From Verrucomicrobiales bacterium (GTDB taxonomy: Bacteria > Verrucomicrobiota > Verrucomicrobiia > Methylacidiphilales > JAAUTS01): a stretch of 43,686 bases of DNA. Below, piece by piece: positions 333 through 43,686 of the stretch. The notes beneath the pieces were generated by a model. It was not told the origin of the DNA, searched no databases, and saw only the letters and a program-made list of their open reading frames with translations. The position numbers and the translations under genes were made by a program. The DNA lies in contig JAISCS010000206.1 in NCBI GenBank assembly GCA_031265365.1, positions 1 to 43,686 of the forward strand, written 5' to 3'. How positions within the stretch are numbered: position 1 is the first letter of the stretch; every line of letters starts with the position of its first letter.

Positions 333-422
333 AGAGATGTACAGGCGGCGGAGCGCGAGCGAGTTTTGGGGGGAAAATATTTGGGACTTCCCCCGCGTTT
401 GGAATTTGGTATTCTCAGCAGC

Positions 423-1097
423 GTGAATACCAAGATTTGGAAATTAATCGCGCCGGTGGTGTTGTTTGCCACCGCGCTGCTGGTCTGCTGGCTCTCGCCC
501 AACCCCAACACCACACCCGTCGCCGGCGTGAAAATGGTGTTGCCCGACCAGGTCGGCGACATGACCGGCGGCGAGTTGCAGGGCATGTCCGACGCCGAAA
601 AACGCTTATTGCCCGGTGACACTGAAATGACGCGCCGCGTTTACGGCAACGCGCGCGGCGAGATGCTGGCGTGCACCATCGTCCTCGCCGGCGGCGCGAA
701 GAACAGCATCCACCGCCCCGAGGCTTGCCTGCCCGCGCAAGGCTGGAACATTGACAGCGAGGAGGTCATCCCCGTCACCCTCGCCAACGGTCACTCGCTG
801 GACGTCATGAAGGTGACGATTCATCTCGACGACATCAGCACCGGCCAAAAGGTGCGGCGGCAGGCGTATTATTTGTATTGGTTCGTCGGGCGCGAGGTCA
901 ACACGCCGAGCCACTGGACGCGCGTGTTTCTGAGCAGTTGGGACCGCGTGTTTCACAACACCAACCACCGCTGGGCCTATGTCAGCGTGTTCATGCCCGT
1001 CGCCAACAACCAGGCCGCCGCCGCGACGCTGGAGGTCATGAAGGACTTCATCGCCAAGTCCGCGCCCGAATATATGTTCTCCGAAATGCCGCGCTGA
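423..1097 (+). CDS. Exosortase-associated EpsI family protein
   Basis: N-terminal TM, SIHRPEACLPAQGW motif, YLYWFVG and RWAYV segments typical of EpsI; start placed at in-frame GTG 423 (ORF track 366). Confidence 0.8.
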   Translation: MNTKIWKLIAPVVLFATALLVCWLSPNPNTTPVAGVKMVLPDQVGDMTGGELQGMSDAEKRLLPGDTEMTRRVYGNARGEMLACTIVLAGGAKNSIHRPEACLPAQGWNIDSEEVIPVTLANGHSLDVMKVTIHLDDISTGQKVRRQAYYLYWFVGREVNTPSHWTRVFLSSWDRVFHNTNHRWAYVSVFMPVANNQAAAATLEVMKDFIAKSAPEYMFSEMPR

Positions 1098-3602: not shown

Positions 3603-3728
3603 GGTTCTATCCCATGAAAATTCCCCTGCCGTGAAGGGGTGGCGCGGAGCGACGGGGTAGTTCAGCGTTTTATGTGGCAGCATGCGGAACGCTGAACTAC
3701 CCCGTCCGCTGGCGCGGCCACCCCTTCA
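3603..3728 (-). mobile_element. Partial MITE copy 2, inverted orientation
   Basis: Starts GGTTCTATCCC (reverse complement of the right end) and then the palindromic core GGGGTAGTTCAGCGT...ACGCTGAACTACCCC; truncated at CCCCTTCA. Confidence 0.8.
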
Positions 3729-10365: not shown

Positions 10366-10471
10366 ACTAGTCGCCTAATCTACCGATTACACGTCATCGG
10401 TCAACATTAAGACGCGACTGGCGGCATTTTCTTTGAATATTTTTTCCGAATGTTGCTATATTTTCCCCTTC

Positions 10472-13400
10472 ATGGCCACCCACGATTTCATCAAACTCCG
10501 CGGCCTCCGCGAAAACAATCTCAAAGGTTTCGACCTCGACCTCCCGCTTAACCAATTCATCGTCGTCACCGGCCTCAGCGGCAGCGGCAAATCCTCGCTG
10601 GCGTTCGACACCATCTTCGCCGAGGGCCAGCGCCGTTACACCGAGACCTTCTCCCCCTACACGCGCCAGTTCCTCGAACGCATGAACAAACCCAAGGCCG
10701 ACAGCATCGAGGGCATCCCGCCCGCCATCGCCCTAAGCCAGGTCAACTCCGTCCGCACCTCCCGCAGCACCGTCGGCTCCATGACCGAAATCGCCGATTA
10801 CTTGAAACTGCTGTTCCCCACCCACGCCGAGCTTCGCAGCCCCGTCACCGGCCAAAAAATCCAGCCGTGGACCCCCGCGCAAATCGTCGCCGAACTCCTC
10901 GCCCGTCACGCTGACACTCAAGTCCTTGTCACCTTCGACCTCGCGTTCTCCGCCAGCATCTCCTGGCCCGCCATCGTCCAAACCCTCCAAGCCCAAGGCT
11001 TCACTCGCGTCCTTTGGAATGACCAACCCGCGCGCCTCGACGACCTGGCAAACGTTACCGCCAGCGCCCCGCTCACCATCAGCGTCATCGCCGACCGCCT
11101 CACCGTCAGCGCCGAAACCCAATCCCGCCTCGCCGAAGCCATCCAAACCGCCCTCCAACACGGCAAAGGTCTAGTCACCATACGACCTATAAGTCCTATA
11201 CGACCCATAAGACCTATAACCTACGCCGACCATTACCTAGACCCCGCCACCCACCACCTCTACACCGCCCCCACCCCCGCTCTCTTCTCCTTCAACAGCC
11301 CCATCGGCGCCTGCCCCGTCTGCAAAGGCTTTGGCCGCACCGTCACCATCGACTACGACCTCGCCCTCCCCGACCGCACCCTCACCATCAGCGGCGGCGT
11401 GGTCAAATGCTTCTCCGGCCAGACCATGCAAGAATGCCAGCGCGACCTCCTCAAAGCCTGCCGCAAACACCGCATCCCCGCCAACATCCCCTTCAACCAA
11501 CTCACCAAAGCCCAGCAAAAATTCGTCATCCACGGCGAAATCACCCCCGGCAAAACCCTCGAACAATCCTATGACGACGGCGAATGGTACGGCGTCAGCG
11601 GCTTCTTCAAATGGCTCGAGATGCGCACCTACAAAATGAATGTCCGCATCCTCATCGCCCGCTACCGCGCCTACCACCCCTGCCCCGCCTGCCACGGTGA
11701 CCGCTTCAAACCCGAAACCACCCTCTGGCAACTCCACGGTAAAACCATCACCACCATCAACGCCACTCCCCTCCGCGACCTCGCCCCGTGGTTCGCCAAC
11801 CTCACCGTCAGCGACGCCTCTGCCAAAATCCTCCTTCACCAAATCACCGCCCGCCTCGCCTACCTCAACCAAGTCGGCCTCGGCTACCTCACCCTTGGCC
11901 GCGCCAGCCGCACCCTCAGCGGCGGCGAACTCCAGCGCGTCAACCTCACCACCTGCCTCGGCACCAGCCTCGTCGGCACCCTCTTCGTCCTCGACGAACC
12001 CAGCATCGGCCTCCACCCCCGCGACACCGCCCAACTCACCAACATCCTAAAAACCCTCGCCCGCCAGGGCAACACCGTCCTCGTCGTCGAGCACGACGCC
12101 GCCATCATCCGCGCCGCCGACCACCTCATCGAACTAGGCCCCCGCGGCGGCGCCGACGGCGGCCACCTCATCCACAGCGGCCACCCGGACAAATTCCAAA
12201 CCTCAAATCTCAAACCCCAAATAAATTCCAACCACAAAATATCAAATTCCAAAACCATCTCGCTCACCGCTGACTATCTCTCAGGCCGCCGCGTCATTCC
12301 TCTCCCCGACAAACGCCGCTCCGTTGACGAACACACGCCGCGGCTTGCTTTCAGCGGCGCGTCCAAACACAACATTCACCACCTCGCCGGCCAAATCCCC
12401 CTCGGCAAATTCACCGCCATCACCGGCGTCAGCGGCAGCGGCAAAAGCACCCTCGTCCGCGATATAATCGCCCCCGCGGTGAAAACAATGCTCTCCACCA
12501 AACCACACCGCCGCCGCGACGCCGGGGCGGTTTGGAATTTGAAATCTGGAATCTGGAGCTTGGTTGGAATTTGCGATCTGGAATTTGGCATTTGCGAGGT
12601 TTTAGTCGTCGACCAAAGCCCCCTCACCCGCAGCGCCCGCAGCACCCCCGCCCTCTACCTCGGCGCCTACGACCACATCCGCCAACTCCTCGCCGGCACC
12701 GACAGCGCCCGCCGCCTCGGTCTCACCCCCGCCGACTTCTCCTTCAACACCGGTGCCGGCCGCTGCCCCCGCTGCGCCGGCGCCGGCCACGAAAAAATCG
12801 AAATGCAATTCCTCTCCGATGTTTTCATCACCTGCCCCGTCTGCGACGGCAAACGTTTCCAAGACCACGTCCTCACCGCCGACTACCGTGGCAAAAACAT
12901 CGCCGACCTCCTCTCCCTCACCGTCAGCGAAGCCATCGCCTTTTTTAACTCCAGCCACGCGAAGGCGCAAACACCAGGTGAACAACGCGCGTGCTTAAAA
13001 ACCGCCGCCGCGCTGCACCTGTTGGAACAAGTCGGCCTCGGCTACCTCACCCTCGGCCAACCCACCAGCCACCTCAGTGGCGGCGAAGCCCAGCGCTTAA
13101 AACTCGTCGCCGAACTAACCGCCGCCCCCCTCAAAAAACTCCGCGGCTCCGCCTCTCCGCGCGAACCAAAAGGAAAACTAATCATCCTCGACGAACCCAC
13201 CACCGGCCTTCACTACGAAGACCTCCGCGTCCTGCTCGGCGTCCTGCAAACCCTCGTTGACCGCGGCCACACCCTGCTAGTCATCGAACACAACATGGAA
13301 CTCGTCAAATGCGCCGACTGGGTCATCGACCTTGGCCCCGAAGCCGGCGACCAAGGCGGCCAAATCATCGCCGAAGGCACCCCCGAACAAATCGCCGTCC

Positions 13401-16291
13401 ACCCCGCCAGCCGCACTGCCCCCTACCTAGCACAAGCCCTTCGGGGAACCGATGCGGACTTCCGAGGAGCCTATGCGGACTTCCGAGGAACCGATGCAGA
13501 CTTCCGAGGAGCCTATGCGGACTTCCGAGAAGCCTATGCGGACTTCCGAGGAACCTACGCGGACTTCCGAGAAGCCTATGCAGACTTCCGAGGAACCTAC
13601 GCGGACCTCCGAGGAGCCTATGCAGACTTCCGAGAAACCTACGCGGACTTCCGAGGAACCTCCCCCGTCCCCTCCCCCCCCGCCATCCAAATCACCGGTG
13701 CCACCCACCACAACCTAAAAAACCTCACCGTCAGCATCCCCCGCCAACAAATGACCGTCATCACCGGCCTCAGCGGCAGCGGCAAAAGCACCCTCGCCTT
13801 CGACCTCCTCTTCGCCGAGGGCCAGCGCCGCTACCTCGACTGCCTCAACAGTTACGCCCGTCAATTCATCGAACAACTCGAAAAACCCCGCGTGGACGCC
13901 ATCACCGGCATCCCCCCCACCGTCGCCATCGAACAACGCGCCACCCGTGGCGGACACAAAAGCACCGTCGCCACCGTCACCGAAATCTACCACTTCCTCC
14001 GCCTCCTCTACGCCAAACTCGGCGCCCAGCACGACCCCGCCACCGGCACCCCCTGCATCCAACAAACCCCCGCGCAAATCACCACCCAAATCAAAAAACA
14101 ACTAACCACCGCCCGCGAACACCTCCTCCTCGCCCCCCTAATCCGCGCCCGCAAAGGCAACTACACCGAACTCGCCGCCTGGGCCGCCAAAAAAGGCTAC
14201 CCCTACCTCCGCGTCAACGGCACCATCACCCCCACCGCCGACTTCAAACCCCTCAACCGCTACCGCGAACACACCATCGACCTAATCATCGCCACCCTCA
14301 CCCCCCGCACCCCCAACCTCCCCGCCCTCATCACCCAAGCCTTAGACCACGGCAAAGGCACCCTTATCATCAGACCCATAGGAACTATCCACCCCACAGA
14401 AACCACTCACAGCACCCACCTCTATAGCCCCGCCACCGGTAAATCCTTCCCCCCGTTAGACCCCCGACTCTTCTCCTCCAACTCCCCCCACGGCTGGTGC
14501 CCTCGCTGCCAAGGCTACGGCACCCTCGCCAACCTCTCCGCCGACGCCACCCTCACCCCCCTCGAACAAGAACAACAACAAGAACTAGCCCGCGAACACC
14601 TCGACGACCTCGCCGCCACCCCCTGCCCGGCCTGCCACGGCACCCGCCTCAACGAAACCGCCCGTGCCGTCCGCTTCGCCGGCCGCCCCGTCACCGACCT
14701 CAACGCCATGACCGTCAGCGCCCTCGACCGCTTCCTCACCACCCTCAAACTCAAAGGCCGTGCCGCCGCCATCGCCCGCGACATCCTGCCCGAACTCCGC
14801 CAACGCCTCCAATTCCTCCGCCACGTCGGCCTCGACTACCTCAACCTCGACCGCCCCGCCCCCACCCTCAGCGGCGGCGAAGCCCAGCGCATCCGCCTCG
14901 CCGCCCAACTCGGCTCCAACCTCCAGGGCGTCCTCTACATCCTCGACGAACCCACCATCGGCCTCCACCCCCGCGACAACGCCGAACTCATCAAAACCCT
15001 CCGCCACCTCCAACAACGCGGCAACACCCTCGTCATCGTCGAGCACGACGAAGCCACCATGCGCGCCGCCGACCACATTATCGACCTCGGCCCCGGCGCC
15101 GGCGTCAACGGCGGCCAACTCATCGCCCAAGGCACCTGGCGCGCCATCACCCGCAACCGCCGGTCCCTCACCGGCAAACTCCTCGGCGCCCCGTTACCAC
15201 ACCCCATGCGCGGCACCCGCCGCAAAACCGACCGGCACACCCAATGGCTCACCATCCCCAACGCCACCGCCAACAACATAAAAAACCTCACCATCAAACT
15301 CCCCCTGGGTAAACTCATCGGCATCAGCGGCGTCAGCGGCAGCGGCAAAAGCACCCTAATGCACAAAATCATCATCCCCGCCGTGCGGAAAAAAATTGAA
15401 ACCAGAAAACAGAAAGCAAAAATTTCAGCTTCCAACTTTCAGCTTTCCAATTTAGTTCAAGTCACCCAAACCCCCATCGGCAAAACCAGCCGCAGCACCG
15501 TCAGCACCTACCTTGGACTCATGGACCGCCTCCGGCAACTCATGGCCCAGCTCCCCCTCGCCAAAACCCGCGGCTACACCCCCGCCCACTTCTCCTACAA
15601 CGCCGGCCCCGGCCGCTGCCCCGCCTGCCAGGGCCAGGGCTTTCTAAAAATTGACATGAACTTCCTCCCCACCGCCTACATCCCCTGCGACCAATGCAAC
15701 GGCCAGCGCTGGACCGCCCCCATCCTCGAAATCACCTACCACGACAAAAACATCTACCAAATCCTCACCCTCAGCGTCGACGAAGCCGTCGAATTTTTTG
15801 CCGGCCAGCCCACCGTCCAAGTCCCGCTGAAACTCCTGCAAGAAACCGGCCTCGGCTACCTCACCCTCGGCCAAACCAGCCCCACCCTCAGCGGCGGCGA
15901 AGCCCAGCGCCTTAAACTCGTCACCGAACTCGCCAGCCTCCGCCTCCAAGAACACCGCCAGCGCCCCGCCACCCGCGCCGCCGGCGCCGGGCGAACCCTC
16001 TATCTGCTGGAAGAACCCACCGTCGGCCTCCACCTCGCCGACGTCCAAAGATTGCTTGAAGTCCTGCACCAACTCGTTGACGCCGGCCACACCGTCATCG
16101 TCATCGAACACCACCTGGACCTGCTCGCCGAATGCGACCACCTCATCGACCTCGGCCCCGAAAGCGGCGCCAAAGGGGGCCGCGTCATCGCCGCCGGCCC
16201 CCCCGAACAAATCGCCGGCAACCAACGCAGCCACACCGGCCGCTACCTCCGCCCCCTGCTATATCTCCCAAAAATCGACGCGGCCAAATAG
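10472..16291 (+). CDS. uvrA: Excinuclease ABC subunit A, double-length (two fused UvrA units) with several in-frame repeat insertions
   Basis: Four Walker A motifs (GLSGSGKS x2, GVSGSGKS x2), four LSGGE signatures, CxxC zinc fingers; start placed at MATHDF (10472). Confidence 0.95.
13439..13661 (+). repeat. 21-bp tandem repeat (10 full units plus a partial) in the uvrA inter-unit linker
   Basis: Consensus TTCCGAG(G/A)A(A/G)CC(T/G)A(T/C)GC(G/A)GAC, encoding FR(G/E)(T/A)(Y/D)AD heptads. Confidence 0.97.
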
Positions 16292-17925: not shown

Positions 17926-18253
17926 TGTTCGTGCGGAGACGCTGAGACGCGGAGAATTTATCAGGTTAAAAAACTCGGTTCCTCGCTGTTAGCAGTGGCA
18001 GCACTGACGTCGGCCTCCCTCCACCGCCCATGCCCTTGCGTGAGCTAATTCCCCTTCCGTGAAGGGGTGGCCGCGGAGCGGACGGGGTAGTTCAGCGTTA
18101 ACAGGAACCTCGCCCCAAACGCTGAACTACCCCGTCGCTCCACGCCACCCCTTCACGGAAGGGGAATTATGCTCCGCTTACCACCCGCCGCTGCCATTCC
18201 ACTGTTCACGGGATAGAACCAAAAATTCATATCTCCGCGTCTCCGCGCGAACC
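17926..18253. repeat. GAGACGCGG-family hairpin whose loop is occupied by a MITE
   Basis: Left arm 17927-17955, right arm TCTCCGCGTCTCCGCGCGAACC at 18232-18253. Confidence 0.8.
17977..18220 (+). mobile_element. Complete MITE copy 3 (244 bp)
   Basis: GGTTC...GAACC ends; flanks AAAAACTC / AAAAATTC (8-bp duplication, 1 mismatch); central ~120-bp palindrome. Confidence 0.88.
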
Positions 18254-18829
18254 TCAAATATTATCCACCACCGGATACACCGTCTCGATATGCTCAAGGA
18301 TGACGTGCATAATCCACGTGTGCAACTCCTGCGCGCGCGCCGTGTTGTCAGTGGGGATGACGATGGCGTGGTCGGACAACTCCCGCGCCTTGCCGCCGCC
18401 CTTGCCCAGCAGACTGACGGTGATAATGCCCAGCTTCTTCGCCGCGCCGAGCGCCTTGATGAGATTCGCCGAGTTGCCGCTGCCGCTGAAGATGACCAGA
18501 ATGTCCCCCGCGTGGCCGAGGCCCTCGATTTGGCGCGAGAAGACGGCGTCGTAACCCCAGTCATTGCCGATGCACGTCAGCGCCGTGACATCCGCTGACA
18601 GTGAGATGGCCGGCAGCGAGCGCCGGTTGCCGCGATAGCGTCCGACCAATTCCTCCGCCATGTGCAGCGCGTCCGCCGCGCTGCCGCCGTTGCCACAGGT
18701 CAGCACCTTGTGGCCGTTCTTGAAACATTGCTCGAACAACGGGAACAATTTTTCGACTTGCGGCAGAAAACGCTCGAAACTCACCACGACTTGTTTAAGC
18801 TCGGCATACTGTTGTTGGACTAATGACAT
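18254..18829 (-). CDS. gmhA: SIS-domain phosphoheptose (sedoheptulose-7-phosphate) isomerase
   Basis: CGNGGSAADA, TCIGNDWGY, FSRQIEG, SGNSAN, QELH. Confidence 0.9.
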   Translation of the reverse strand: MSLVQQQYAELKQVVVSFERFLPQVEKLFPLFEQCFKNGHKVLTCGNGGSAADALHMAEELVGRYRGNRRSLPAISLSADVTALTCIGNDWGYDAVFSRQIEGLGHAGDILVIFSGSGNSANLIKALGAAKKLGIITVSLLGKGGGKARELSDHAIVIPTDNTARAQELHTWIMHVILEHIETVYPVVDNI

Positions 18830-20113: not shown

Positions 20114-20194
20114 GGGCACGTGGCGAAATGGCAGACGCGCTGGATTTAGGTTCCAGTGGAGCAATCCATGTAGGTTCGAGTCCTATCGTGCCCA
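20114..20194 (+). tRNA. tRNA-Leu (anticodon TAG)
   Basis: Acceptor GGGCACG/CGTGCCC plus discriminator A; D-arm TGGCGAAATGGCAGACGC; anticodon stem CTGGA-TTTAGGT-TCCAG; long variable arm; GGTTCGAGTCC; CCA not encoded. Confidence 0.96.
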
Positions 20195-20222
20195 AGGTAC
20201 CCTTTCACGTGTGACGTTTTTT

Positions 20223-20455
20223 CCAATGCCCCGCAGGGGCTAAACCTTGAATAACCGTGGGTGGAAGGCCAGTCTGCTGGCATGGAACCCACGGACTGAC
20301 CTAGTGAGCAACAGCGTCCCCGCAGGGGGCGAATATCGATGCTTGGTTCGCCCCTTGCAGGGACGCTGTTACTCTCTATATCTACCCGTGGGTTCCGCTC
20401 GGCAGACCTCGCTCTACCCACGGTTATTCATGGTTTAGCCCCTACGGGGCATTGG
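20223..20455. repeat. 233-bp REPIN-like nested palindrome (GCCCCGCAGGGGC type)
   Basis: 20223-20262 pairs with 20416-20455; inner pairs GGAACCCACGG/CCGTGGGTTCC and AACAGCGTCCCCGCAGGGGGCGAA/TTCGCCCCTTGCAGGGACGCTGTT. Confidence 0.9.
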
Positions 20456-20489
20456 CCTGCTTCCACTGCCCACGGGATAGAATCTTTGG

Positions 20490-20693
20490 GGTTCCCCATC
20501 GTTAGCCGTGGAAGCGCTGACGCCGTCAAACCCCGCCAACCATGCCCTGCGTCAGCAAATTCCCCTTCCGAGAAGGGGTGGCCGCGTAGCGGACGGGGTA
20601 GTTCAGCGTTACCGGGCACTTGGCACCGAACGCCGAACTACCCCATCGCTACGCGTCACCCCTTCACAATTCCTCTGATAATGGGATAGAACC
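20490..20693 (+). mobile_element. Complete MITE copy 4 (204 bp)
   Basis: GGTTC...GAACC ends; flanks ATCTTTGG / ATCTTTGA; adjoins a solo right end at 20461-20484. Confidence 0.85.
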
Positions 20694-20810
20694 ATCTTTG
20701 ATAATCATTAATGGGAATGCAAACCACTGTTACGCCTGGCATGTGTTCGGGCAACACCAGATAACACCGCCGCGCGGTTGACGCTGATGGTGACCGCCAA
20801 CGTCATGATA

Positions 20811-21473
20811 TTATTCTTCCGCACCCATCATCACGCGGCGGATTTTTTTCAGGCCGTCCTGCATTTTATCAGGCAACCGCAACGGCGGGTCGGGCGGTGG
20901 CGCGTAGGAATACACAACCTGCATCACGGCGGAATCAAGGCATAATGGAAAGAGCTTCTCAACATCCACCCACGCGGTCCATTCGTTGTTTTGATAAACG
21001 TGACACTTGCGACCCTGCCACGGCTTGACGCCTCGGTAAGTACTCGCCGTAATCCATTTCAAGTTTGGCAGCACGTCCTCAGGCGGCGATTGCGAAAAAT
21101 CCCAAGTTTTCATGTCCTGGGACACGCGGTGAAAGCGGAGGTCACCGTAGCGCCAAAATTCATACCGCAGATTATTGGTGTATTCGCGCGTCTCCAAACC
21201 GACAGTGCCACTCATGGCAATTTCCAATTTTAGCACCTGCGGCGAGGCGTTGAAAAAATCCCGCACCTTTTGTTGTGCCGGGGTTAGTTTGGGGTCAAGC
21301 GGTTTCTGTTTGTAAGTGAAGACGGCACTGATGGTGACGTCAGTGGCCGACGAGTTACGGTAAAGTGGCGTTGGCGGTGTTAATTTGGACTTGGTTTCCG
21401 CTGCCGTCACCGTCAACGCCAAGGCTAGAAACACAACGCTGACACTGAGGAAAATACTGGTTTTGTTATTCAT
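20811..21473 (-). CDS. Hypothetical secreted protein
   Basis: Signal peptide from MNNKTS (21473); starts 4 bp after the giant pilin-leader gene, so likely the same operon. Confidence 0.75.
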   Translation of the reverse strand: MNNKTSIFLSVSVVFLALALTVTAAETKSKLTPPTPLYRNSSATDVTISAVFTYKQKPLDPKLTPAQQKVRDFFNASPQVLKLEIAMSGTVGLETREYTNNLRYEFWRYGDLRFHRVSQDMKTWDFSQSPPEDVLPNLKWITASTYRGVKPWQGRKCHVYQNNEWTAWVDVEKLFPLCLDSAVMQVVYSYAPPPDPPLRLPDKMQDGLKKIRRVMMGAEE

Positions 21474-21477
21474 AATT

Positions 21478-24400
21478 TTACTCCACCACCGGTTCGAGTT
21501 GCTGGTCCACAATCTCCCCGGTGAACCGGTCAATGGCGATGTGTAGCCAGTAATGTTTTTCACCCTCGACGATGAAATTTCGCAAGTCGTTCACGCCGGA
21601 GCCGTAACGCCCGACTTGCGCGACAAGGTCAATCAACAAATTCCAAGTCCGCACTTGCACACTGCCGGTGAGCGCGCGCAACACCGCCTCATGCCGCCCC
21701 TTGCTGTCAACGGAGAAATTGGCCCTGTCAATTACGCCATTATTGCCCGACATCACGACTGGCAGGTCGCCAAGGCTGGACAGCGGCAGTGCCCCGGCGC
21801 GCTCGTTGATAATTCGGGCGATTTTTGACATGTCACTGGCGGTAAGCGTGTCGTTGTCGCTGACGGTGGCGGTGCCGGATGAAAATTTTGCGTAGTCATT
21901 GGCAGCGCCACTGATGATGGATTCCAGCACCAGCGCGCCGCCGTTGTTGTAATCACGTGCGGCACTGTTGAGATTAATTTTGCCCGCGACCGCGGCAACC
22001 GCGGGCGTGCCACCGTCAGCGCGCGGCACACCGCTGCCGATGTAAAAAACATCGAGCAAGCCGGTGTCGGCGCTGTTGGCGGAAAACAAATTCAACGTTT
22101 TCCACGGGTCGTCGCGAAACACATAACCCAGCTCGGCCATGCTGCGAAAGCGGCGGTTGAGCATGATGGGCCGGCGGCTCGCCGCTGACGATGCTTGCGG
22201 CGCATAACCTTGGCCACCGACAGCATCAGCGTGGCGGAGTACAAAATCACGGTCGGTGTAGTAGGTGCCGTTCGCCTGTTCATTGCTTGCCCAGTTTGCC
22301 ATGCTTTTGGTAACGCGCATGAATGTGGCATTGCCGTTGGAATCAATCGGACCGTTCGGCGACTCCGTCGGCCTTTCGCCGTCTCTGTAAAAATGCGGTC
22401 CCCAAGTGAATTGTCTGTCAAGATTGACCTGCTCCGATGGATTAAAATTGAACGCCAGCACGGACTGGTTGTTTTGGAAACCGTTGGGAATGCCGCTTGG
22501 CGAGTCCGACAGTTGCAGATTGGTCCGCTGCGAGCGCGGGTCGCTGAAATATAAGGCCACGGCCTCCTTGTTATTCGCGCGCCGGAAGATGTTGGGCACC
22601 AAATTACTGGCATTATTGGTAATAAGCCGTCTTGCCGGCATATTTTGCCCCGGACCAATTTGCTGCCATGCATTATTGACAATATACTCATAGTATTCCG
22701 GCACAATAGCGTCATAATTGGTGTTATTCCAAGTGGGGTCATTTTCCTCCATGAACGGGTTGCCGCGTCCCTCAATGTCATTGGTTATGGAATTCAACGT
22801 TTGGTAGGTGTGCCAAGTGCCGGGACTGGCCGGGTCCTCGTATTGCAGATGAATGCGTATCGGCCCGCCGCTGGCCTCAAATTCACCTGTCGCGGTTTCC
22901 CTCAGCAACGGCCAAAAACGGCTGTAAACCACGGCACCCCCGCCAAGTGGCGGATACCGATAGTTGCTGGGTGGGATATGCGTCCATTGCCGGGCGTCCC
23001 TATTAGTTTCCCGCCACCAATAAAACCTTTTTCCGTCACTGTCAACTTCTTCCGGCTGGCCACCACCGCCGGTGACGGTGATTGTCGGCGGGTCATTATA
23101 CATCGGAAAAAGCGGCTCGGTCTGTGGAATCTTGAATGGATTTTCCGGCGCATACGACCAGCCGGTATAAATGGCGGCGCGCTTCCAGCCATATTGCGAG
23201 CGCACGATGCCAAAGCGGTCATTCAGGTTTGCGCTGCCCGGATTTTTGGAGTCCGAGGTGTAGGCTTTGTCTATGCCTGAATTAATCAAGTCCGTCGGCT
23301 CGGCACAATTATTATAGTCAGCCAGCTTGAACGCCACCCACGCCGGACCGGACGGAGTAGTGTTCGAGGTCGGCGACGGGGCGGTGGACGGCACAAGCGC
23401 GCGGTTGAGGCCGAGAAAAGTCCGCCTTTGATAATAGTGCCCCTCCTCGGACGCCACATCCTGATATTTTGAAAAATCATGAATCTGCGGGCAAATACTG
23501 CCATTGGTGGCGAGAATCCTCACACTCGGCGGGCGCAACGCGATACCGGAGTTCAACAAATCAGCGGCGTTTTGGTGCGGATTCCACAGGCCGAAATTCA
23601 GCCAGCTATGCAAATAAGCATGCCAGTCGTTGGGCCATATCGTATTGTCAACTGCACCCTCCGCGAAGCTGACGACGCTCTGGCCGATTGACAAAATATA
23701 AGGCAAATTTTCCACGCCGTAAAATGACTTGCCGCCCATGCGGATTTCCGTCGGAAAATTGTCCTCGTCCCACTGGTCAATGATGTTCGCGCCAATCTGT
23801 AAAATTTGATGTTTTTCCTGCGCGTAAATCAGCGCATATATATCATCGCTTATGGCCTCAAAACGTCCGATTGGGGCGCTGATGATGGAGCCGCGGTTGC
23901 CGCGATTGTCGGTAAAAACCTGCATGTCTTGCATGCGCCGGAACTCGCCGCGATTTAAGGCCAAGTTGGACTCCGGATATCCGGTGGTGAGACCAAGGCT
24001 GCCCCGCAAAATGACGGCTTGGAGCAACTCGAAAAAATCCGGCTCACGCCCGGCGGCAGCCACTTCCGCCAGGGTGCAAATCCGCACACGCTCGTCGCTA
24101 GTGCGCCCGCCATGGTCGTATTCCCATGCGCCGCCGATGCACACACCGTTACTGGGATTAACCGTGCCATCGGGTATGCGGCGCAATCCGAAATTATCAT
24201 ATATATTTTTCTCAAAGTCAGCGTCAGCGGGAAAATAACTTGGCCGCACGCCGTTGAACCTCAGCCAGTCAATTTTTGCAAGGTCGAAGCGATACTTGAC
24301 CAGCGACTCGCCAACTTCCATCCTTTCGCCGCTCAATCTCGTGCCGCTGACGCTGACAGTGACGTTGGGAATAAAGCGATTGTTCGAGGCGGGGTCATCG

Positions 24401-25552
24401 CGCTTGGCATAATAATCGTAAGTGGGGCGGGTGCCTGTGTCCGGGTCAATTGGCGTGAGCATTCCCGGATTATTGATACCGCTCCAAAACTCGGCGTCAT
24501 GGGCCGGTCCCCAAGAGGGCGCGTTTTTCTCGCGCGAAAATGTTGTGAAATACGGGTAAAAGTCCTCGAAGCCAAGCCGTTGCGCGGCGTCGAGAAAATC
24601 CTGCCGGCTGACAAACACACTGTCACCGTCAGCGACGCGCCGGAACCCGCTGGCCGACGCCGCGCCGGTGCCGCTGAGGTATTCGACGTAGGTCGTGCCA
24701 CTGGCCGCGCTCTGACGGTTGCGATACTCCTTGACCAGCTCGTCAACATCAGCGGCGCCCAAGCCGAGCCGGGTCAGGTCGGCGTAACCGACATTACCCT
24801 TGCGCGCGACCTCGTCGTCAGCGACATCGCTCGCGTGCCCGATGGCGTTGATGTCCGGCAAGCCGCCCGTGTCATACACGATGTAGGCGTAACGACCGAT
24901 GACAAAATCCGCGTTGCCCGCGACACTGTCAGCGAGCGTGCCGGAGCTGAGCAACGCCTCCGCCCGTTCCGCCGCCAGCGGCCCGCGCCGTGTGAACAAC
25001 ACCCAGTGCGGGTCAATGCTCGTCGCCAGCGTGTCGCTGTTGCCGATGAACGCCCGCTCCCAACGCGCATGGTCAATATAGCGGCCATTCGCCGCCGGTG
25101 TCGCGGCGCTGACGTTGACCGCCGGCGCGCCGCCGCTGGCGGTGAATTCGTCACCCTCCCACAGCGGGCGGTCATTCGCGCTCCATTTGATAAGATTAAA
25201 CGGCACCGTGCCGCTACCGCTAAGGTCCGCGTCGCGCACCATGCGGAACGGCAGCATATTTTCGGGCACCGCCGGTTCGAACGCCCCCGCCGAACCGTTG
25301 ACCGTGGAGCCGGCCTTGATTTCCTCTAACAAATCCGCCTTGACGAAATCCAGCGCGCTGGCGGCGAGCACCTGCGCCCGCGCCTGCGCCGCGCTGGAAA
25401 AGGAAATTTTTCGATTCAACCGCGCCTGGCCGAAGAAGGCGAGCACGCTGACGGTTATCAACAGCAGCGCGAACAGCGCGATAATGAGCGCCGCGCCACG
25501 GGAAGCCCAGCCTTGACTAGCAACTAAATAGTGTCTACCCCCCCCCCCTCAT
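21478..25552 (-). CDS. Large prepilin-leader surface protein (Verru_Chthon cassette protein A / PilX-like), frameshifted at a G11 tract near the start
   Basis: Frame stays open upstream of 25461 and reads ...SRG/AALIIALFALLLITVSVLAFF (class III-like leader); C-terminal RTWNLLIDLVAQVGRY...YWLHIAIDRFTGEIVD; nearest ATGs (25552, 25567, 25630) are out of frame by one base. Confidence 0.78.
25538..25548 (-). promoter_or_regulatory. Poly-G11 tract, candidate slipped-strand ON/OFF switch
   Basis: ATG-A-G11-TAG stops at once; G10 or G13 would give MRGGG(G)RHYLVASQGWASRGAAL... in frame with the large ORF. Confidence 0.7.
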
Positions 25553-25695
25553 TAAATATTTATACATTGTATAATGTGTGGAAATATCCGATTGTTGAAG
25601 GAGCGTGTTTCGTTTGTGCGACTTTTTCATTTTTGCAATATTCCATTCCCTCACTGGAAAATGCAAGCATTTTTTATTTGATTTTTCACCGCCGT

Positions 25696-25734
25696 AACAA
25701 AACAGCCCCGGTGTTGTGCCGGGGCCGTTTTGTT
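25696..25734 (-). terminator. Rho-independent terminator downstream of gdhA
   Basis: Stem GCCCCGG-7 nt loop-CCGGGGC with T-rich tails on both strands. Confidence 0.8.
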
Positions 25735-25752
25735 TTGCGAATAACACGCGGA

Positions 25753-27252
<1,500 letters not shown>

Positions 27253-30364: not shown

Positions 30365-30582
30365 GGTTCCTCGCTGTTAGCAGTGGCAGCGTTGACGCCG
30401 CCCCCCTCACCGCCCCAGCCTTCTGCGCCAGCGCATTCCCCTTCCGTGAAGGGGTGGCCGCAGAGCGGACGGGGTAGTTCAGCGTTAACAGGGACCTCGC
30501 CCCAAACGCTGAACTACCCCGGCGCTCCGCGCCACCCCTTCACGGAAGGGGAATTAAATTCCTCTGTTCACGGGATAGAACC
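30365..30582 (+). mobile_element. Complete MITE copy 5 (218 bp)
   Basis: GGTTC...GAACC ends with a perfect 8-bp duplication AAAAAACT (30357-30364 and 30583-30590). Confidence 0.9.
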
Positions 30583-30632
30583 AAAAAACTAGAATCTGGT
30601 GTTTTTTGAAAATGCCGGTAGCTTGTTATTCC

Positions 30633-33614: not shown

Positions 33615-33800
33615 CAGTGGCAGCACTGACGCCGGCACACTCCCCACCGCCCCTGCCTCCCGCGCCAGCAAATTCCCCTTCCGTGAAGGGGTGGCGGCGC
33701 GAGCCGACGGGGTAGTTCAGCGTTACTGGGGAAGTACTAACCCCGAACGCTGAACTACCCCGTCCGCTGGCGCGTCCATTCCTTCACGGAAGGGAAATTT
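33599..33800 (+). mobile_element. Partial MITE copy 6 (left end plus palindromic core)
   Basis: GATTCCTCGTCATTAGCAGTGGCAGCACTGACG resembles the left end at 17977; core at 33671-33799; right end absent. Confidence 0.82.
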
Positions 33801-34869
33801 ACCCAATTCCCAGCCACCCGAACAGCCGGTACATGCAGTAGCTGAACACCCCGCACACCGGCAGCGTGAAAATCCACGCCCAGACCATTTGCTCCACCAC
33901 GCCCCATTTCACCGAGCGAAACCGCTTGGCGCAGCCCATGCCCATGATGGACGAGGAGATGACGTGCGTGGTCGACACCGGAATGCCCCAGTGCGAGGCG
34001 ATTTGAATGATGGTCGCCGACGCCGTTTCCGCCGCGAACCCGTGCACCGGCTGCATCTTCACCATCTTGTGACCGAGGGTGCGGATGATGCGCCAGCCGC
34101 CCGCCGCCGTGCCCGCCGCCATCGTCAACGCGCAGGTGATTTTCACCCACAGCGCGACGTCGAAGGCCGGCGTGCGGAGGAAGTGCAACCAGCGCGGCAA
34201 TTGCTCGAACACGCCGCCGCTGGTGGCGGTGAACAGCGCCAGCGCGATGATGCCCATGGTTTTTTGCGCGTCGTTCATGCCGTGGCTCAGCGCCATGTAC
34301 GCGGCGCTGACCCACTGGCCTTTGCCGAAGATGCGGTTGGCCAGGCTGGGCCGCATTTTTTGACACAGGACGAGGATGGCCATCATCATGATGAAGCCGA
34401 GGATGAAGCCCGCCGCCGGCGAGAGCAGCATCGGCAGGATGACCTTCGGCCACAGGCCCTCGGCGTGGCCGGTGACGGGGTTGAGAATGTCCCACTTGAG
34501 CACGCCCCAGTCCCCGCGCGCGGTGGCCAGCGCCGCGCCGCACAGGCCGCCGATGAGCGCGTGGCTGGAGCTGGACGGCAGGCCGACGTACCAGGTGAGC
34601 AGGTTCCAGAAAATCGCGCCGAGCAGCGCGGCGGCGATGGTGCCGAGGGTGACGGAGTGCGCGTCCACGATGCCGCTGCCGATGGTCTTGGCGACGGCGA
34701 CGCCGATGAGCGCGCCGAACAGGTTGCACGCGGCGGCGAGGCAGATGGCGGCGCGCGGCGAGAGGGCGCGGGTGGACACCACCGTGGCGATGGAGTTGGC
34801 GGTGTCGTGGAAGCCGTTGATGTATTCAAACACCAGCGCGGCCAGGATGACAAATAGGACGACGGTCAT
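33799..34869 (-). CDS. pit: Inorganic phosphate transporter (PiT family)
   Basis: NGFHDTAN, GLPSSSSH, HGMNDAQK, PVSTTH signatures. Confidence 0.95.
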   Translation of the reverse strand: MTVVLFVILAALVFEYINGFHDTANSIATVVSTRALSPRAAICLAAACNLFGALIGVAVAKTIGSGIVDAHSVTLGTIAAALLGAIFWNLLTWYVGLPSSSSHALIGGLCGAALATARGDWGVLKWDILNPVTGHAEGLWPKVILPMLLSPAAGFILGFIMMMAILVLCQKMRPSLANRIFGKGQWVSAAYMALSHGMNDAQKTMGIIALALFTATSGGVFEQLPRWLHFLRTPAFDVALWVKITCALTMAAGTAAGGWRIIRTLGHKMVKMQPVHGFAAETASATIIQIASHWGIPVSTTHVISSSIMGMGCAKRFRSVKWGVVEQMVWAWIFTLPVCGVFSYCMYRLFGWLGIG

Positions 34870-34878
34870 GGTAGGGTT

Positions 34879-35043
34879 AACTCAAATCGCAAAACTCAAA
34901 TCGCAAAACCATAGGGCAAATCGCAAAACTCGCTGGCGCTAACAAGGCGGACAGCCAAATAGCGCCAGCGACTTTTGGGTTTTGCCTTGTGGTTTTGCGC
35001 TTTGAGCTTTGAGTTTTGAGTTTTGAACTTTGCATTTTGAGTT
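34879..35043. repeat. Gene-less long hairpin of 7-nt-period arms (CAAAACT/CAAATCG vs TTTTGAG)
   Basis: Inner stem TCGCTGGCGCTA/TAGCGCCAGCGA with heptamer-repeat outer arms; separates the DUF47 and pit genes. Confidence 0.85.
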
Positions 35044-35046
35044 CCT

Positions 35047-35676
35047 TCAGGAGTACTTCAACACGATGTAATTAATGATGTTCCCCGTCGTGCGGCAGCG
35101 GTCGATGATTTTTTCCAGCGTCTCGTAAAGGTGCCGGCGGATGATGACCGTCAGCGGGTCGTAGCGGCCGCTGTACAAGTCCTTGAGCAACTCCAGCATC
35201 AACCGGTCGCCCTCGCCCTCGATGGTTTGCAGATGGTTGTTCAAGTCGCGCACGTTCTCGATGTTGGCGTGGCGGCGCAGTTTTTTCACCATCTCGCGGA
35301 TGGTCTGCGTGGCGTCGTCCAGCAACAGCGCCTGCTTGAGAAAATCCGCCGTCTGGATGTGGTCGGGCGACACCAGCAGCCGCTCGCAAAAACGCTCGAC
35401 GGTCTTTGGGATTTTGTACAAGGCCAGCGTCAGCGACTCGATGTCCTCGCGCTCAATCGGCGTGCTGAAGCTGGTGGCGAGCAGCGTGGAAATGTCGTCG
35501 CGGATGCGTTTTTGCTTGCGGCGGTGGTCGGTGAATTTGTCGAGCCGGCGCTCGGCGGCGGGCGTCTTGAGCAGGGCGACCAGCTCGATGGCGCTGTCGT
35601 GGCACTCCTCCGAGGCCGCGCCAAGCAAGTCGTAAAACTTGTCGCTGTTACTGAACCAACGCTGAATGGAAAACAT
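35047..35676 (-). CDS. DUF47 / PhoU-like phosphate transport regulator
   Basis: SFSTPIEREDI and IEGEGD motifs; adjacent to pit. Confidence 0.9.
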   Translation of the reverse strand: MFSIQRWFSNSDKFYDLLGAASEECHDSAIELVALLKTPAAERRLDKFTDHRRKQKRIRDDISTLLATSFSTPIEREDIESLTLALYKIPKTVERFCERLLVSPDHIQTADFLKQALLLDDATQTIREMVKKLRRHANIENVRDLNNHLQTIEGEGDRLMLELLKDLYSGRYDPLTVIIRRHLYETLEKIIDRCRTTGNIINYIVLKYS

Positions 35677-37627: not shown

Positions 37628-38767
37628 ATGAAACTCGACTATGTGAAAAAATACCTGCCCGTGGGTTCCTTCGGAATCTCACTGCTGCTCCACCTCGCCA
37701 TCTTCATCGGCATCAGCGGCATCGTCCTCATCCAATCAGTCCCCTCCAAGCAATTCTTCTCCACCGAACCCGGCGGCCCCACCTCCGACCTGCCGCCGCC
37801 CCCCGAAATACCCGACGAGAATATTGACCCCGACCCGTCCGGCGACCCCGCTGACGCTGCCGAGGAAGTCCAGCCCGCCCGCTCCGCCGTCCCCGTCGAG
37901 CAAATCACCAGCAGCGTCGCCACCAACGTCACCTTCACTCTGCCCCCGCAAATCGGCACCGTTACCGGCGCCGCCGACGGCATTGGCAAGGGTGGCGTCC
38001 CCGGCGGCAAGGGCAGCGGCGGCAGGGGCGGCCCGCCCCGCGCGCTGGCCAACCCCTTCGGCGACCGCAATATCAGCGGCGATGACGCCCTCGTCGGCAC
38101 CATGTACGACCTCAAGCAAACCGCCAACCGCAAACCCTCCAAATTCGCCCCCGACACCGCGCGGGAAGAATACCTCGCCTTCGTCAAACGCCTCGCCTCT
38201 TCTTGGAACCGCGCCCTGCTCGAACCCTATTACAAAGTGGAGCAACCCATCGGCACCTATCAAATCTTCATCCCCAAAATATTCGCCACCGCCGCGCCCG
38301 CCGCGTTCAAGGCGGAAAAATACGTCGCCCCCAAGCGCTGGGTCATCCTCTACACCGGCAACTTCACCTCCCCCGCCAGCGGCACCTACCGCTTCGTCGC
38401 CCTCGCCGACGATGTGTTGGTCGTCCGCCTCAACGGTCGCGTCGTCGCCGACGGCTCCCTCTTCCCCGCCACCAGTTGCCGCCGCGAAATCCTCGGCAAA
38501 CCGTATATCATCGACCACCCGCAATTCCAAATGTACGCCGGTGAATGGTTCCAGTTGGAGAAAGGCAAGCAATATCCCCTCGAAATACTCCTCGGCGAAA
38601 ACCCTGGCGGGGATTTCGCCGCCTACCTGCAAATCCAGGAAAAAGGCGTCGAATATCCGCAAAGGAAAGGCTTCGGTCCCGCGCTCCCCGTCTTCCAAAC
38701 CCGCCCCTGCGCCATCCCGCGCGGCATCATCCCCCCCATCGCCCCCAAGCCCTTCGTCAACGAATGA
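37628..38767 (+). CDS. Membrane-anchored protein with Pro/Gly-rich linker and PA14-like C-terminal domain
   Basis: SLLLHLAI anchor; LVGTMYDLKQ; YTGNFTSP.SGTYRFVALADD; LEKGKQYPLEI (PA14-like pattern). Confidence 0.75.
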   Translation: MKLDYVKKYLPVGSFGISLLLHLAIFIGISGIVLIQSVPSKQFFSTEPGGPTSDLPPPPEIPDENIDPDPSGDPADAAEEVQPARSAVPVEQITSSVATNVTFTLPPQIGTVTGAADGIGKGGVPGGKGSGGRGGPPRALANPFGDRNISGDDALVGTMYDLKQTANRKPSKFAPDTAREEYLAFVKRLASSWNRALLEPYYKVEQPIGTYQIFIPKIFATAAPAAFKAEKYVAPKRWVILYTGNFTSPASGTYRFVALADDVLVVRLNGRVVADGSLFPATSCRREILGKPYIIDHPQFQMYAGEWFQLEKGKQYPLEILLGENPGGDFAAYLQIQEKGVEYPQRKGFGPALPVFQTRPCAIPRGIIPPIAPKPFVNE

Positions 38768-38790
38768 CCGCGCGCGCCGGCGACAAGGGT

Positions 38791-38913
38791 AAATTCCCCT
38801 TCCGTGAAGGGGTGGCCGCGCCAGCGGACGGGGTAGTTCAGCGTTACAGGGACTTGGCCCCGAACGCTGAACTACCCCGTCGCTCCGCGCCACTCCTTCA
38901 CGGAAGGGGAATT
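38791..38913. repeat. Free-standing palindromic core of the MITE (copy 7, no ends)
   Basis: AATTCCCCTTCCGTGAAGGGGTGG...CCACTCCTTCACGGAAGGGGAATT. Confidence 0.88.
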
Positions 38914-39017
38914 GGGGAATTGCCGGGTGTGTGGCCATGCCCGGTGGCGGCGCTGACTGACGCCGCCGCCCGTTTTGCTTGCGCGCGGTGGACGGGTGAT
39001 TAGAATGGCCGCCGTTC

Positions 39018-42516: not shown

Positions 42517-43686
42517 TCAGCGGCGGCGGCGCAGGGTCGTCACCAGCAGCGCCGCGCCGATGGTCAGCAGCAGCCACGTTGAAGGCTCTGGTATTTGGGC
42601 GTGCAACAGCAGGTTGTTGCCCTCCAGTATGAAGTGGTAATCGTAGCCGCGTGTGTCGGTCACGTTGAGGTTGTCCAAATTGCCGACCACACTCTCGAAG
42701 CCGGATACGATTTGCCAGCTTGCCGTGTCAAAGTCCGGCGTGTAGTCGGCGGATAGAAAATTCAGCCGGATGGTGGCGTAGTCCTCGAACGTCAGCGTCG
42801 CGTTGTTATTCAGGCTAACAATCATGTCGTTGGTCAGGTCGTCCGCGATGTCAATGTCCAGGAACGCGCCAGCTTTGAACGTCAGCGCCTCCACGTAATC
42901 GCCGAGGAACAGCGTGCCGGCTTGCAGCTTGCCGCTGAGGTCGCCGGGGGCGATGCGGCCGCCGCTGTTGACGGTGACGGTGTCTTTCGTGCCTGTCGTG
43001 CCGCCGATGTTGAGTTGACTGCCCTCCACGTCGGTGAAATTCACGGTGCCGTTGCCGCTGAGCTTGGTGATTTCCACGCGGCTGTTGTTGCCCACCGTCA
43101 GCGCGCCGCCGAGGTCCACGCGCAATTCGCTGTTGGTGATGGCGTGCGAATGATTAGCCAAGGCGAGGCCCTGCACCAAGGTCGAGCCGCCGTAGCTGTT
43201 GGAGCCGGACAGGGTGGTGATGCCCGCTTGCGCCAAAATCAGGCCGGGCGCGGGGTCGTCGGCGTCGAGGTCGTTGGTCAGCGTCAGTTCGGGGCCGAAG
43301 GTCATGGGGTTCAGGGCGCCGTACACGATGAGCGCGCGCGTGCCACTGCTGATGGTGCCGGTGCCGGTGATGGTGATTCCGGCGCTGTTGTGCTGCCCGC
43401 CGAGCAACACGCCGCTGGTGATGGTCAGCTTGGCGTTGATGGTCTGCGTCGTGTTCAGGCCGGCCTTCAGCGCGTTGATGGTTTGGTCGGTATTGAGGGT
43501 GTTGTGACCGCTCAGATACACATTAGTATTGACGCCAGAGGTGAAGTTGGTGGCGTATTCGGCAGCCGTCAGCGGGCGGAAGCCATCCTCGGATGTGTAG
43601 GTCACCAAATCAGTGCCGGCGTATTGGTACAGGTCATAGCTCAACCAGTTACTATTATAGTTGCCACTCATGCCAGAATTGGCCGC
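42517..43686 (-). CDS. PEP-CTERM surface protein with autotransporter-associated beta-strand-like repeat (5' end outside window)
   Basis: C-terminal IPEPSTWLLLTIGAALLVTTLRRRR; G.TTLSGSNSYGGST.V..G motif; frame open to the window edge. Confidence 0.92.
   Translation of the reverse strand, partial: AANSGMSGNYNSNWLSYDLYQYAGTDLVTYTSEDGFRPLTAAEYATNFTSGVNTNVYLSGHNTLNTDQTINALKAGLNTTQTINAKLTITSGVLLGGQHNSAGITITGTGTISSGTRALIVYGALNPMTFGPELTLTNDLDADDPAPGLILAQAGITTLSGSNSYGGSTLVQGLALANHSHAITNSELRVDLGGALTVGNNSRVEITKLSGNGTVNFTDVEGSQLNIGGTTGTKDTVTVNSGGRIAPGDLSGKLQAGTLFLGDYVEALTFKAGAFLDIDIADDLTNDMIVSLNNNATLTFEDYATIRLNFLSADYTPDFDTASWQIVSGFESVVGNLDNLNVTDTRGYDYHFILEGNNLLLHAQIPEPSTWLLLTIGAALLVTTLRRRR

Follow-up and report, generated by a model that had tools for sequence, protein, structure and literature searches.

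We analyzed a 43,686-nucleotide stretch of DNA, referred to here as the window, that comprises positions 1 to 43,686 of contig JAISCS010000206.1 (assembly GCA_031265365.1) from an uncultured verrucomicrobium. On its minus strand, a run of 11 guanines (G11) lies at the very start of a gene for a giant protein with a pilin-like N-terminal helix and, as assembled, leaves this gene out of register with the start codon in front of it. On balance, we read the tract as a candidate slipped-strand (contingency) switch that lies in the opening codons of a gene for a giant pilus- or pseudopilus-associated protein. This reading is favored because the gene is not decayed and is otherwise intact, because the tract sits at a 5′ end that lacks a start of its own, and because the gene belongs to a pilin-linked class.

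A G11 tract at the 5′ end of the giant gene

Read directly, positions 25552 to 25535 of the minus strand are ATG AGG GGG GGG GGG TAG, followed by ACA CTA and preceded by ...TATAAATATTTA (Table 1). With G11, translation from the ATG ends after 5 codons; with G12, it would end after 9 (GTA GAC ACT ATT TAG). The frame of the large gene, read from 25548, starts GGGGRHYLVASQGWASRGAALIIALFALLLITVSV... and runs for 1,356 codons, and the open frame that follows the TGA at 25551-25549 has the N-terminal sequence GGGGRHYLVASQGWASRGAALIIALFALLLITVSVLAFFGQARLNRKISFSS... From the ATG frame, one step of four bases where the tract ends leads into the stop-free translation MKKSHKRNTLLQQSDISTHYTMYKYLMRGGGRHYLVASQGWASRGAALIIALF..., and because this step gives one continuous stop-free frame, a tract of G10 or G13 would put the ATG in register with the gene. 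Shifting the frame by one base within the tract therefore links ATG 25552 (or 25567 or 25630) to the entire large gene. The in-frame product from ATG 25552 would be approximately 1,357 amino acids long, with the tract encoding two to four glycines in a non-conserved leader. The original prediction had described this frame anatomy, i.e., the ATG-AGG-G11-TAG arrangement, the closing TGA, the three ATGs at 25552, 25567, and 25630, and the fusion at G10 or G13, and every element was confirmed on the sequence. Its further claim that the only start codons near the 5′ end of the large frame lie inside the hydrophobic helix was likewise borne out, these being TTG 25461, which would give 1,327 amino acids, and GTG 25446, the start of the 1,322-residue database copy P0003. 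We also considered a start codon 3′ of the tract that would use the G run as a ribosome-binding site; this was ruled out, as none is in frame before TTG 25461.

Comparison with homologues places the missing start before the helix. A protein database search returned 30 proteins, one of which (P0003) is the product of the window gene itself, with GTG 25446 as its called start, leaving 29 non-self homologues. In 25 of these 29, a methionine and a basic leader of approximately 5–50 residues are followed by a glycine (or serine) and then the same hydrophobic helix (e.g., MPRSGGRRG-AALIVALF and MLKRQHLHSRG-AALIVALF). The remaining four comprise P0011 and P0013, which were called from within the helix, P0027, which begins after it, and P0028, whose N-terminus is different; in the DNA encoding P0011 (locus L005), an in-frame ATG lies further upstream of the called start. 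At the nucleotide level, an in-frame start 5′ of the helix was present in all 13 related loci with inspected 5′ ends, and none of them had a homopolymer there. These comparisons indicate that the hydrophobic helix belongs to the real N-terminus of the family. Since the homologues start before the helix and the window frame contains no start there, the window gene is one base out of frame. Two gene-call records begin inside the helix, i.e., P0003 at GTG 25446 and an ESM Atlas record at TTG 25461 (from residue 30), and these may share one assembly.

Beyond the tract, the gene has the appearance of a working one. Its 1,356 codons contain neither a stop nor a further frameshift, and the residues that are invariant in the family are kept through the C-terminal ...FIVEGEKHYWLHIAIDRFTGEIVDQQLEPV.E. 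Because the reading frame 3′ of the tract is open throughout and conserved up to its final residues, the large gene is not a decayed pseudogene. Its register error amounts to one base, located exactly at the tract and nowhere else.

These features suggest how a switch would operate. Tracts of nine or more G or C are known to drive ON/OFF switching, and G tracts of 10 or more are prone to replication slippage by ±1. The window tract has two of the features of a simple-sequence contingency locus, namely its length (G11, against the 8–9 or more G/C needed) and its placement at a site where a change of ±1 switches translation. In the proposed mechanism, replication slippage would alter the tract length by one base. 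In the ON state (G10 or G13), translation from ATG 25552 would read M-R-G-G-G(-G)-R-H-Y... and continue through the basic leader and the ..SRG/AALIIALF.. helix to the end of the protein, for a total of about 1,357 residues. In the OFF state (G11, as assembled, or G12), translation would end after the 5 or 9 codons given above. Downstream in-frame starts could then yield only a protein that lacks the leader, the glycine junction, and half of the membrane/pilin helix, and such products would presumably be neither inserted nor processed. Expression of a coupled 220-residue partner encoded directly downstream would probably also be lowered, by polarity of the untranslated 4-kb message. Under this model, tract length would vary within the population and ATG 25552 would be the real start.

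A family of giant proteins with pilin-like N-termini

We searched for relatives of the large gene in a scan of GTDB species genomes, in which 217 of 362 pattern-matching stretches were confirmed to encode a relative; 80 of these, in 72 loci, were kept. All kept loci belong to Verrucomicrobiota (Chthoniobacterales, Methylacidiphilales, Verrucomicrobiales, Terrimicrobiaceae, and others), often with several copies per genome. The best relatives of the large protein come from metagenome-assembled genomes of Verrucomicrobiales and Chthoniobacteraceae, in agreement with the original prediction that the host is a verrucomicrobium. The closest loci are L001 and L003, at 47% identity, together with L004-L006.

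The genes 5′ of the large gene differ between distant and close relatives. NCBIfam searches showed that in the distant relatives L002, L041, L042, and L049 the large gene lies 3′ of three prepilin-type genes, which best match the D, B, and C proteins of the Verru_Chthon cassette and pseudopilins of the GspH/I/J type; only the B-like gene of L002 scored above the cut-off. The same prepilin-type N-terminal motifs were recognized upstream in L062, by eye only. These D-B-C genes are absent 5′ of the window gene and of its closest relatives (L001, L003, and L004-L006), which are orphan copies. Separately, C9 and G9 runs occur within intact cassette genes of two relatives (L042 2117-2125, in the C-like gene, and L071 3664-3672, in the A-like gene); they may be mutable sites of the same gene system, at positions other than that of the window tract.

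The large protein matched no Pfam family, PilC/PilY1 included. With NCBIfam, it gave only weak N-terminal matches far below the cut-offs, to GspK, Verru_Chthon cassette protein A, and PilV. The GspK profile (NF037980) aligned residues 17-80 with profile positions 2-65 (E 6.3e-5; 22.6 bits against a cut-off of 130), and the Verru_Chthon cassette protein A profile (TIGR02600) aligned residues 18-73 with positions 1-56 of 1,296 (15.6 bits against a cut-off of 332.3), scores at which the protein is a member of neither family. The type IV prepilin motif G[FM]xxxE is absent: the junction reads SRG/AALIIAL, with isoleucine instead of glutamate at +5, and the prepilin cleavage/methylation model TIGR02532 gave no match. 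There was also no PilC/PilY1 C-terminal domain, either among Pfam families or by structural match.

Structural searches gave a similar picture. A profile built from 14 family members had no match among PDB sequences at E ≤ 1. An AlphaFold2 model of residues 1-1200, based on a 62-sequence alignment (mean predicted local distance difference test score (pLDDT) 71.4; predicted template modeling score (pTM) 0.76), predicts a single pilin-like N-terminal helix of 61 residues (19-79), followed by mixed alpha/beta domains; a second model, of residues 900-1356, had a mean pLDDT of 69.6. Foldseek found no PDB match for either model at E ≤ 0.001, and thus no GspK fold, and the look-alikes in the ESM Atlas were confined to unnamed clusters. 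The idea that the C-terminus might be GspK-like (helix-hairpin-helix) was unsupported by the PDB and Foldseek searches; the sole hint of a helix-hairpin-helix came from the ESM Atlas, where 29% of the proteins in the cluster ranked 23 contain HHH_3.

Judged by sequence, the large protein is a member of an unnamed verrucomicrobial family of giant proteins with a pilin-type head, analogous to GspK and to Verru_Chthon cassette protein A but, by the criteria of those families, a member of neither. We infer that it is located on a type IV filament. Two functional claims of the original prediction consequently held only in part. The "prepilin-like leader" stands insofar as a pilin-type helix with weak matches to GspK and Verru_Chthon cassette protein A is present, but not as a canonical prepilin, given the lack of glutamate at +5 and of a match to the prepilin model. 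The proposed role as a "tip protein" of a type IV pilus or type II secretion system draws on the link of the family to pilin-like genes in distant relatives; it was overstated for the window itself, in which family scans and a simple N-terminal motif search found no genes for pilins, prepilin peptidase, or secretion machinery. A literature search on the "Verru_Chthon cassette" found no papers, and one on pili or GspK in Verrucomicrobia had no Verrucomicrobia paper among the matches listed.

Both analogues share part of the architecture of the window gene. Like Verru_Chthon cassette protein A, the window protein is about 1,300 residues long, occurs in the Verrucomicrobia/Chthoniobacter group, and has the same kind of N-terminus, and its distant homologues follow D-, B-, and C-like prepilin-type genes. 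In contrast to the cassette, the window gene and its closest relatives have no upstream D-B-C genes, and the family has a conserved downstream partner of 220 residues. Like GspK, the protein has an N-terminal ..RG/hydrophobic helix junction without glutamate at +5, and in distant relatives its gene comes last after H/I/J-like pseudopilin genes. However, its body is approximately 1,000 residues longer than that of GspK, with no GspK-like fold in Foldseek searches and no PDB sequence match.

The closest precedent for the proposed switch is pilC of Neisseria. Work by Jonsson and colleagues in 1991 reportedly placed the pilC tract in the signal-peptide region. As in pilC1 and pilC2, the window has a G tract in the 5′ coding part of the gene for a large, putatively type IV pilus-associated protein, where frameshifting would turn expression ON or OFF; in the window this remains a candidate. 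Unlike PilC, the window protein has neither homology by Pfam nor a structural match to it, and carries a pilin/GspK-like helix at its N-terminus where PilC has a Sec signal peptide. The hosts also differ, i.e., an uncultured verrucomicrobium as opposed to a pathogen, and switching in the window is a prediction. The pilC tract is genic, with G(9-20), and 145 of 205 pilC sequences are phase-variable (PMC5953494).

Within the phylum, a literature search on homopolymeric phase variation in Verrucomicrobia gave the Akkermansia muciniphila genome paper as the only relevant one among the matches listed. That paper reports 17 genes with tracts longer than 8 bp, enriched at gene termini and proposed to be phase-variable, among them capsule genes that carry (G)8 and (C)10 tracts (PMC3048395). 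Akkermansia shares its phylum with the window host, although the genes and lineage are different and the Akkermansia proposal is itself computational only.

Weighing the proposed switch against other explanations

We asked how far the tract exceeds chance. The window has 60.5% G+C and contains 14 G/C runs of length 6, three of length 7, and one of length 8, and then G11, the longest homopolymer of any base in the 43.7 kb (the next longest is 8). The 72 related loci (597,875 nucleotides) contain no homopolymer of 10 or more of any base and only four G/C runs of 9. What exceeds chance is the position of the tract, in codons 2-5 of the sole usable start of a gene that is otherwise startless.

Several results weigh against the switch. 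The run by itself is only mildly unlikely (about p = 0.05), since 5 of 100 dinucleotide-preserving shuffles gave at least two G10 matches, equivalent to one run of 11. No homologous locus has a homopolymer tract at the equivalent position (among the 13 with inspected 5′ ends), so the device is not conserved, and no second G/C tract of 9 or more or second contingency locus was seen in the window. No in-frame long allele was found when the read-through N-terminus (P0033) was searched against a set of 5.8 billion proteins for longer proteins; the search gave three matches, to P0012, to P0007, and to P0003 over 34% of the query. The window gene is also without the neighboring pilin genes found in distant relatives. 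Finally, a promoter scan of the minus strand between 25553 and 25700 found no match to a full sigma-70 consensus, and no Shine-Dalgarno sequence was found before ATG 25552.

The foremost alternative, a serious one that we consider possible rather than likely, is a miscall in the consensus or assembly: the tract would really be G10 (with G13 less probable) and the gene intact, and the apparent frameshift would stem from an error of one base in the homopolymer. On all sequencing platforms, errors are most frequent in homopolymers of 10 or more. The frameshift is of exactly one base and at the tract, and the remainder of the coding sequence is wholly uninterrupted and conserved, as in a working gene. 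Weakly opposing a miscall, four of the five 8-base runs in the window sit, in frame, in unbroken open reading frames (ORFs) with family matches, and no split gene was seen among the 24 ORFs with family matches, in an inspection that included no formal frameshift detector. A short RecO (179 residues) could have signaled a poor consensus, but no continuation of it was seen in another frame. The two database records that start inside the helix also speak against a miscall, with the reservation that they may derive from the same assembly. If there was a miscall, neither of the deposited starts, GTG 25446 and TTG 25461, would be right, and ATG 25552 or an ATG 5′ of it should be taken as the start of the gene; even then, codons 2-5 would contain a mutable site in the form of a G10 tract, but the label "OFF state" would be wrong.

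A fixed inactivating frameshift, i.e., a recent pseudogene whose tract is not used as a switch, appears improbable. In its favor, the assembled gene is not in frame with its start, is an orphan that lacks the D-B-C pilin genes, and lies in a lower-G+C segment (0.50-0.59 versus 0.60-0.68) adjoining a tRNA-Leu gene, suggesting accessory DNA. Against this, the 1,356 codons have acquired no further stop or frameshift and keep the family-invariant residues, a G11 tract should revert readily and thus would not be expected to stay fixed, and the closest relatives are also orphan copies, yet have intact starts.

Recoding without a change in the DNA, in which the G11 allele would be expressed at some level through a +1 (or -2) ribosomal frameshift at GGG-UAG-A, aided by the Shine-Dalgarno-like G run as at prfB, or through RNA polymerase stuttering, is very improbable: although stepping four bases once at GGGU restores the full frame, not one of the 13 relatives inspected has such a site, tRNA-Gly would re-pair imperfectly on GGU, and bacterial transcriptional slippage is documented mainly at A/T runs. 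The sequence AGG GGG GGG GGG UAG A does resemble the prfB site, with its Shine-Dalgarno-like AGGGGG, slippery codon, and in-frame stop. We nevertheless regard it as most unlikely that G11 is the normal expressed state, with a prfB-style frameshift or stutter five codons into the gene setting a low, tunable level of the giant pilus-associated protein; a recoding signal so close to the 5′ end of a gene would then exist in a phylum for which none is known.

Returning to the slipped-strand switch, the mechanism itself is textbook and of the pilC type; the host is unusual, and the protein family is uncharacterized and essentially unexplored. If the tract varies, the window would provide a tangible example of a contingency locus in a verrucomicrobium that is uncultured and not a pathogen. 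The locus would control a member of a large, unstudied family of pilin-headed proteins, present in several copies per genome in Chthoniobacterales and Methylacidiphilales, with no Pfam family and no structural relative. The logic of Neisseria pilC, in which a big pilus-associated protein is switched rather than the fiber, would then extend to environmental or gut Verrucomicrobiota, and the switch would offer a natural ON/OFF handle for learning the function of these giant proteins.

The two-gene module and other features of the window

The coordinates of the tract, the large gene, and their surroundings are listed in Table 1. As the terminator of the upstream neighbor gdhA lies between the two genes, the large gene has its own transcription start. 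A TATAAAT element at 25564-25558 ends 5-6 nucleotides before ATG 25552; since transcription would, at this distance, begin at the A of that ATG or beside it, a leaderless mRNA is possible.

Table 1. Positions of the tract, the large gene, and surrounding features in the window.
Feature	Position	Strand	Remarks
G11 homopolymer, codons 2-5 after ATG 25552	25538..25548	-	Proposed slipped-strand switch; C11 on the plus strand
ATG, nearest start codon	25550..25552	-	In frame with the large gene only at G10 or G13
TAG closing the ATG frame	25535..25537	-	With G11, reached after 5 codons (M R G G G)
TGA closing the large gene's own frame	25549..25551	-	Immediately 5′ of the tract
Large gene, open frame of 1,356 codons plus stop	21478..25548	-	Stop 21480-21478; GspK-like N-terminal helix, body without known family
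TTG 25461 and GTG 25446	25444..25461	-	No other in-frame start-type codon lies near the 5′ end; both within the hydrophobic helix; starts used by gene callers
Upstream alternative ATGs, 25630-25628 and 25567-25565	25565..25630	-	Share the frame of ATG 25552
AT-rich intergenic stretch, ~150 nucleotides	25553..25704	-	Presumed promoter; G+C 0.48 for 25400-25799
GC-rich hairpin and T run	25705..25725		Terminator of gdhA
gdhA, NADP-glutamate dehydrogenase	25753-27198	-	Upstream neighbor; family matches
Partner gene, 220 amino acids	20811..21473	-	Secreted-looking; ATG 4 nucleotides after the large gene's stop; conserved downstream of homologues
tRNA-Leu	20114-20194		Beyond the partner gene
Palindromic repeat copies	214-338, 3618-3728, 18013-18226, 20520-20689, 30396-30613, 33633-33804, 38754-38923		Repeat families D2, D9, D10, D11, D20, I1-I9

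Directly 3′ of the giant gene, in orphan copies and in full D-B-C-A cassettes alike, there is always a gene for a protein of ~220 amino acids that has a signal-peptide-like N-terminus and belongs to no known family. The window partner shares 39% identity with that of L001 (6932-7609; E 2e-51) and is weakly similar to that of L042 (6230-6976; E 3e-6). This protein is likely a functional partner of the giant protein.

The two-gene module has a G+C content of 0.50-0.59, somewhat below the 0.60-0.68 of the flanks; the reduced G+C of 20800-24400, together with the neighboring tRNA-Leu and the ORF-poor, repeat-containing stretch beside it, hints that the module is accessory DNA inserted beside the tRNA. 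Between the tRNA-Leu and the partner gene (20114-20810 with the tRNA included), approximately 600 nucleotides without a credible ORF contain a 43-nucleotide inverted repeat (20223-20265 / 20413-20455) and one copy of a palindromic element. The latter belongs to a family of palindromic intergenic repeats of ~110-170 nucleotides, with at least seven copies in the 43.7 kb, that matched no Rfam family at the gathering score and looks like a repetitive extragenic palindromic (REP) or miniature inverted-repeat transposable element (MITE) type of element. The predicted ORFs at 18059-18598 and 20339-20689 are spurious and read through copies of this repeat.

Two further repeat regions were observed. 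The ORF at 10433-16291 on the plus strand (1,952 amino acids) encodes two UvrA-like halves joined by a linker of approximately 10 in-frame repeats of a 21-nucleotide unit (13445-13661; D1), followed immediately by a C8 run at 13674-13681; the linker in this UvrA-like DNA-repair gene looks variable. Positions 34879-35043, between a phosphate transporter gene (33799-34869) and a PhoU-like gene (35047-35676), contain dense 7-, 14-, and 21-nucleotide repeats and a 63-nucleotide inverted repeat (34879-34941 / 34960-35022), and may be a regulatory region. Toward the ends of the window, 366-1097 (plus strand) and 42517-43671 (minus strand) encode, respectively, an EpsI-type protein (DUF3485) and one that contains a PEP-CTERM motif, which suggests that the organism has an exosortase sorting system.

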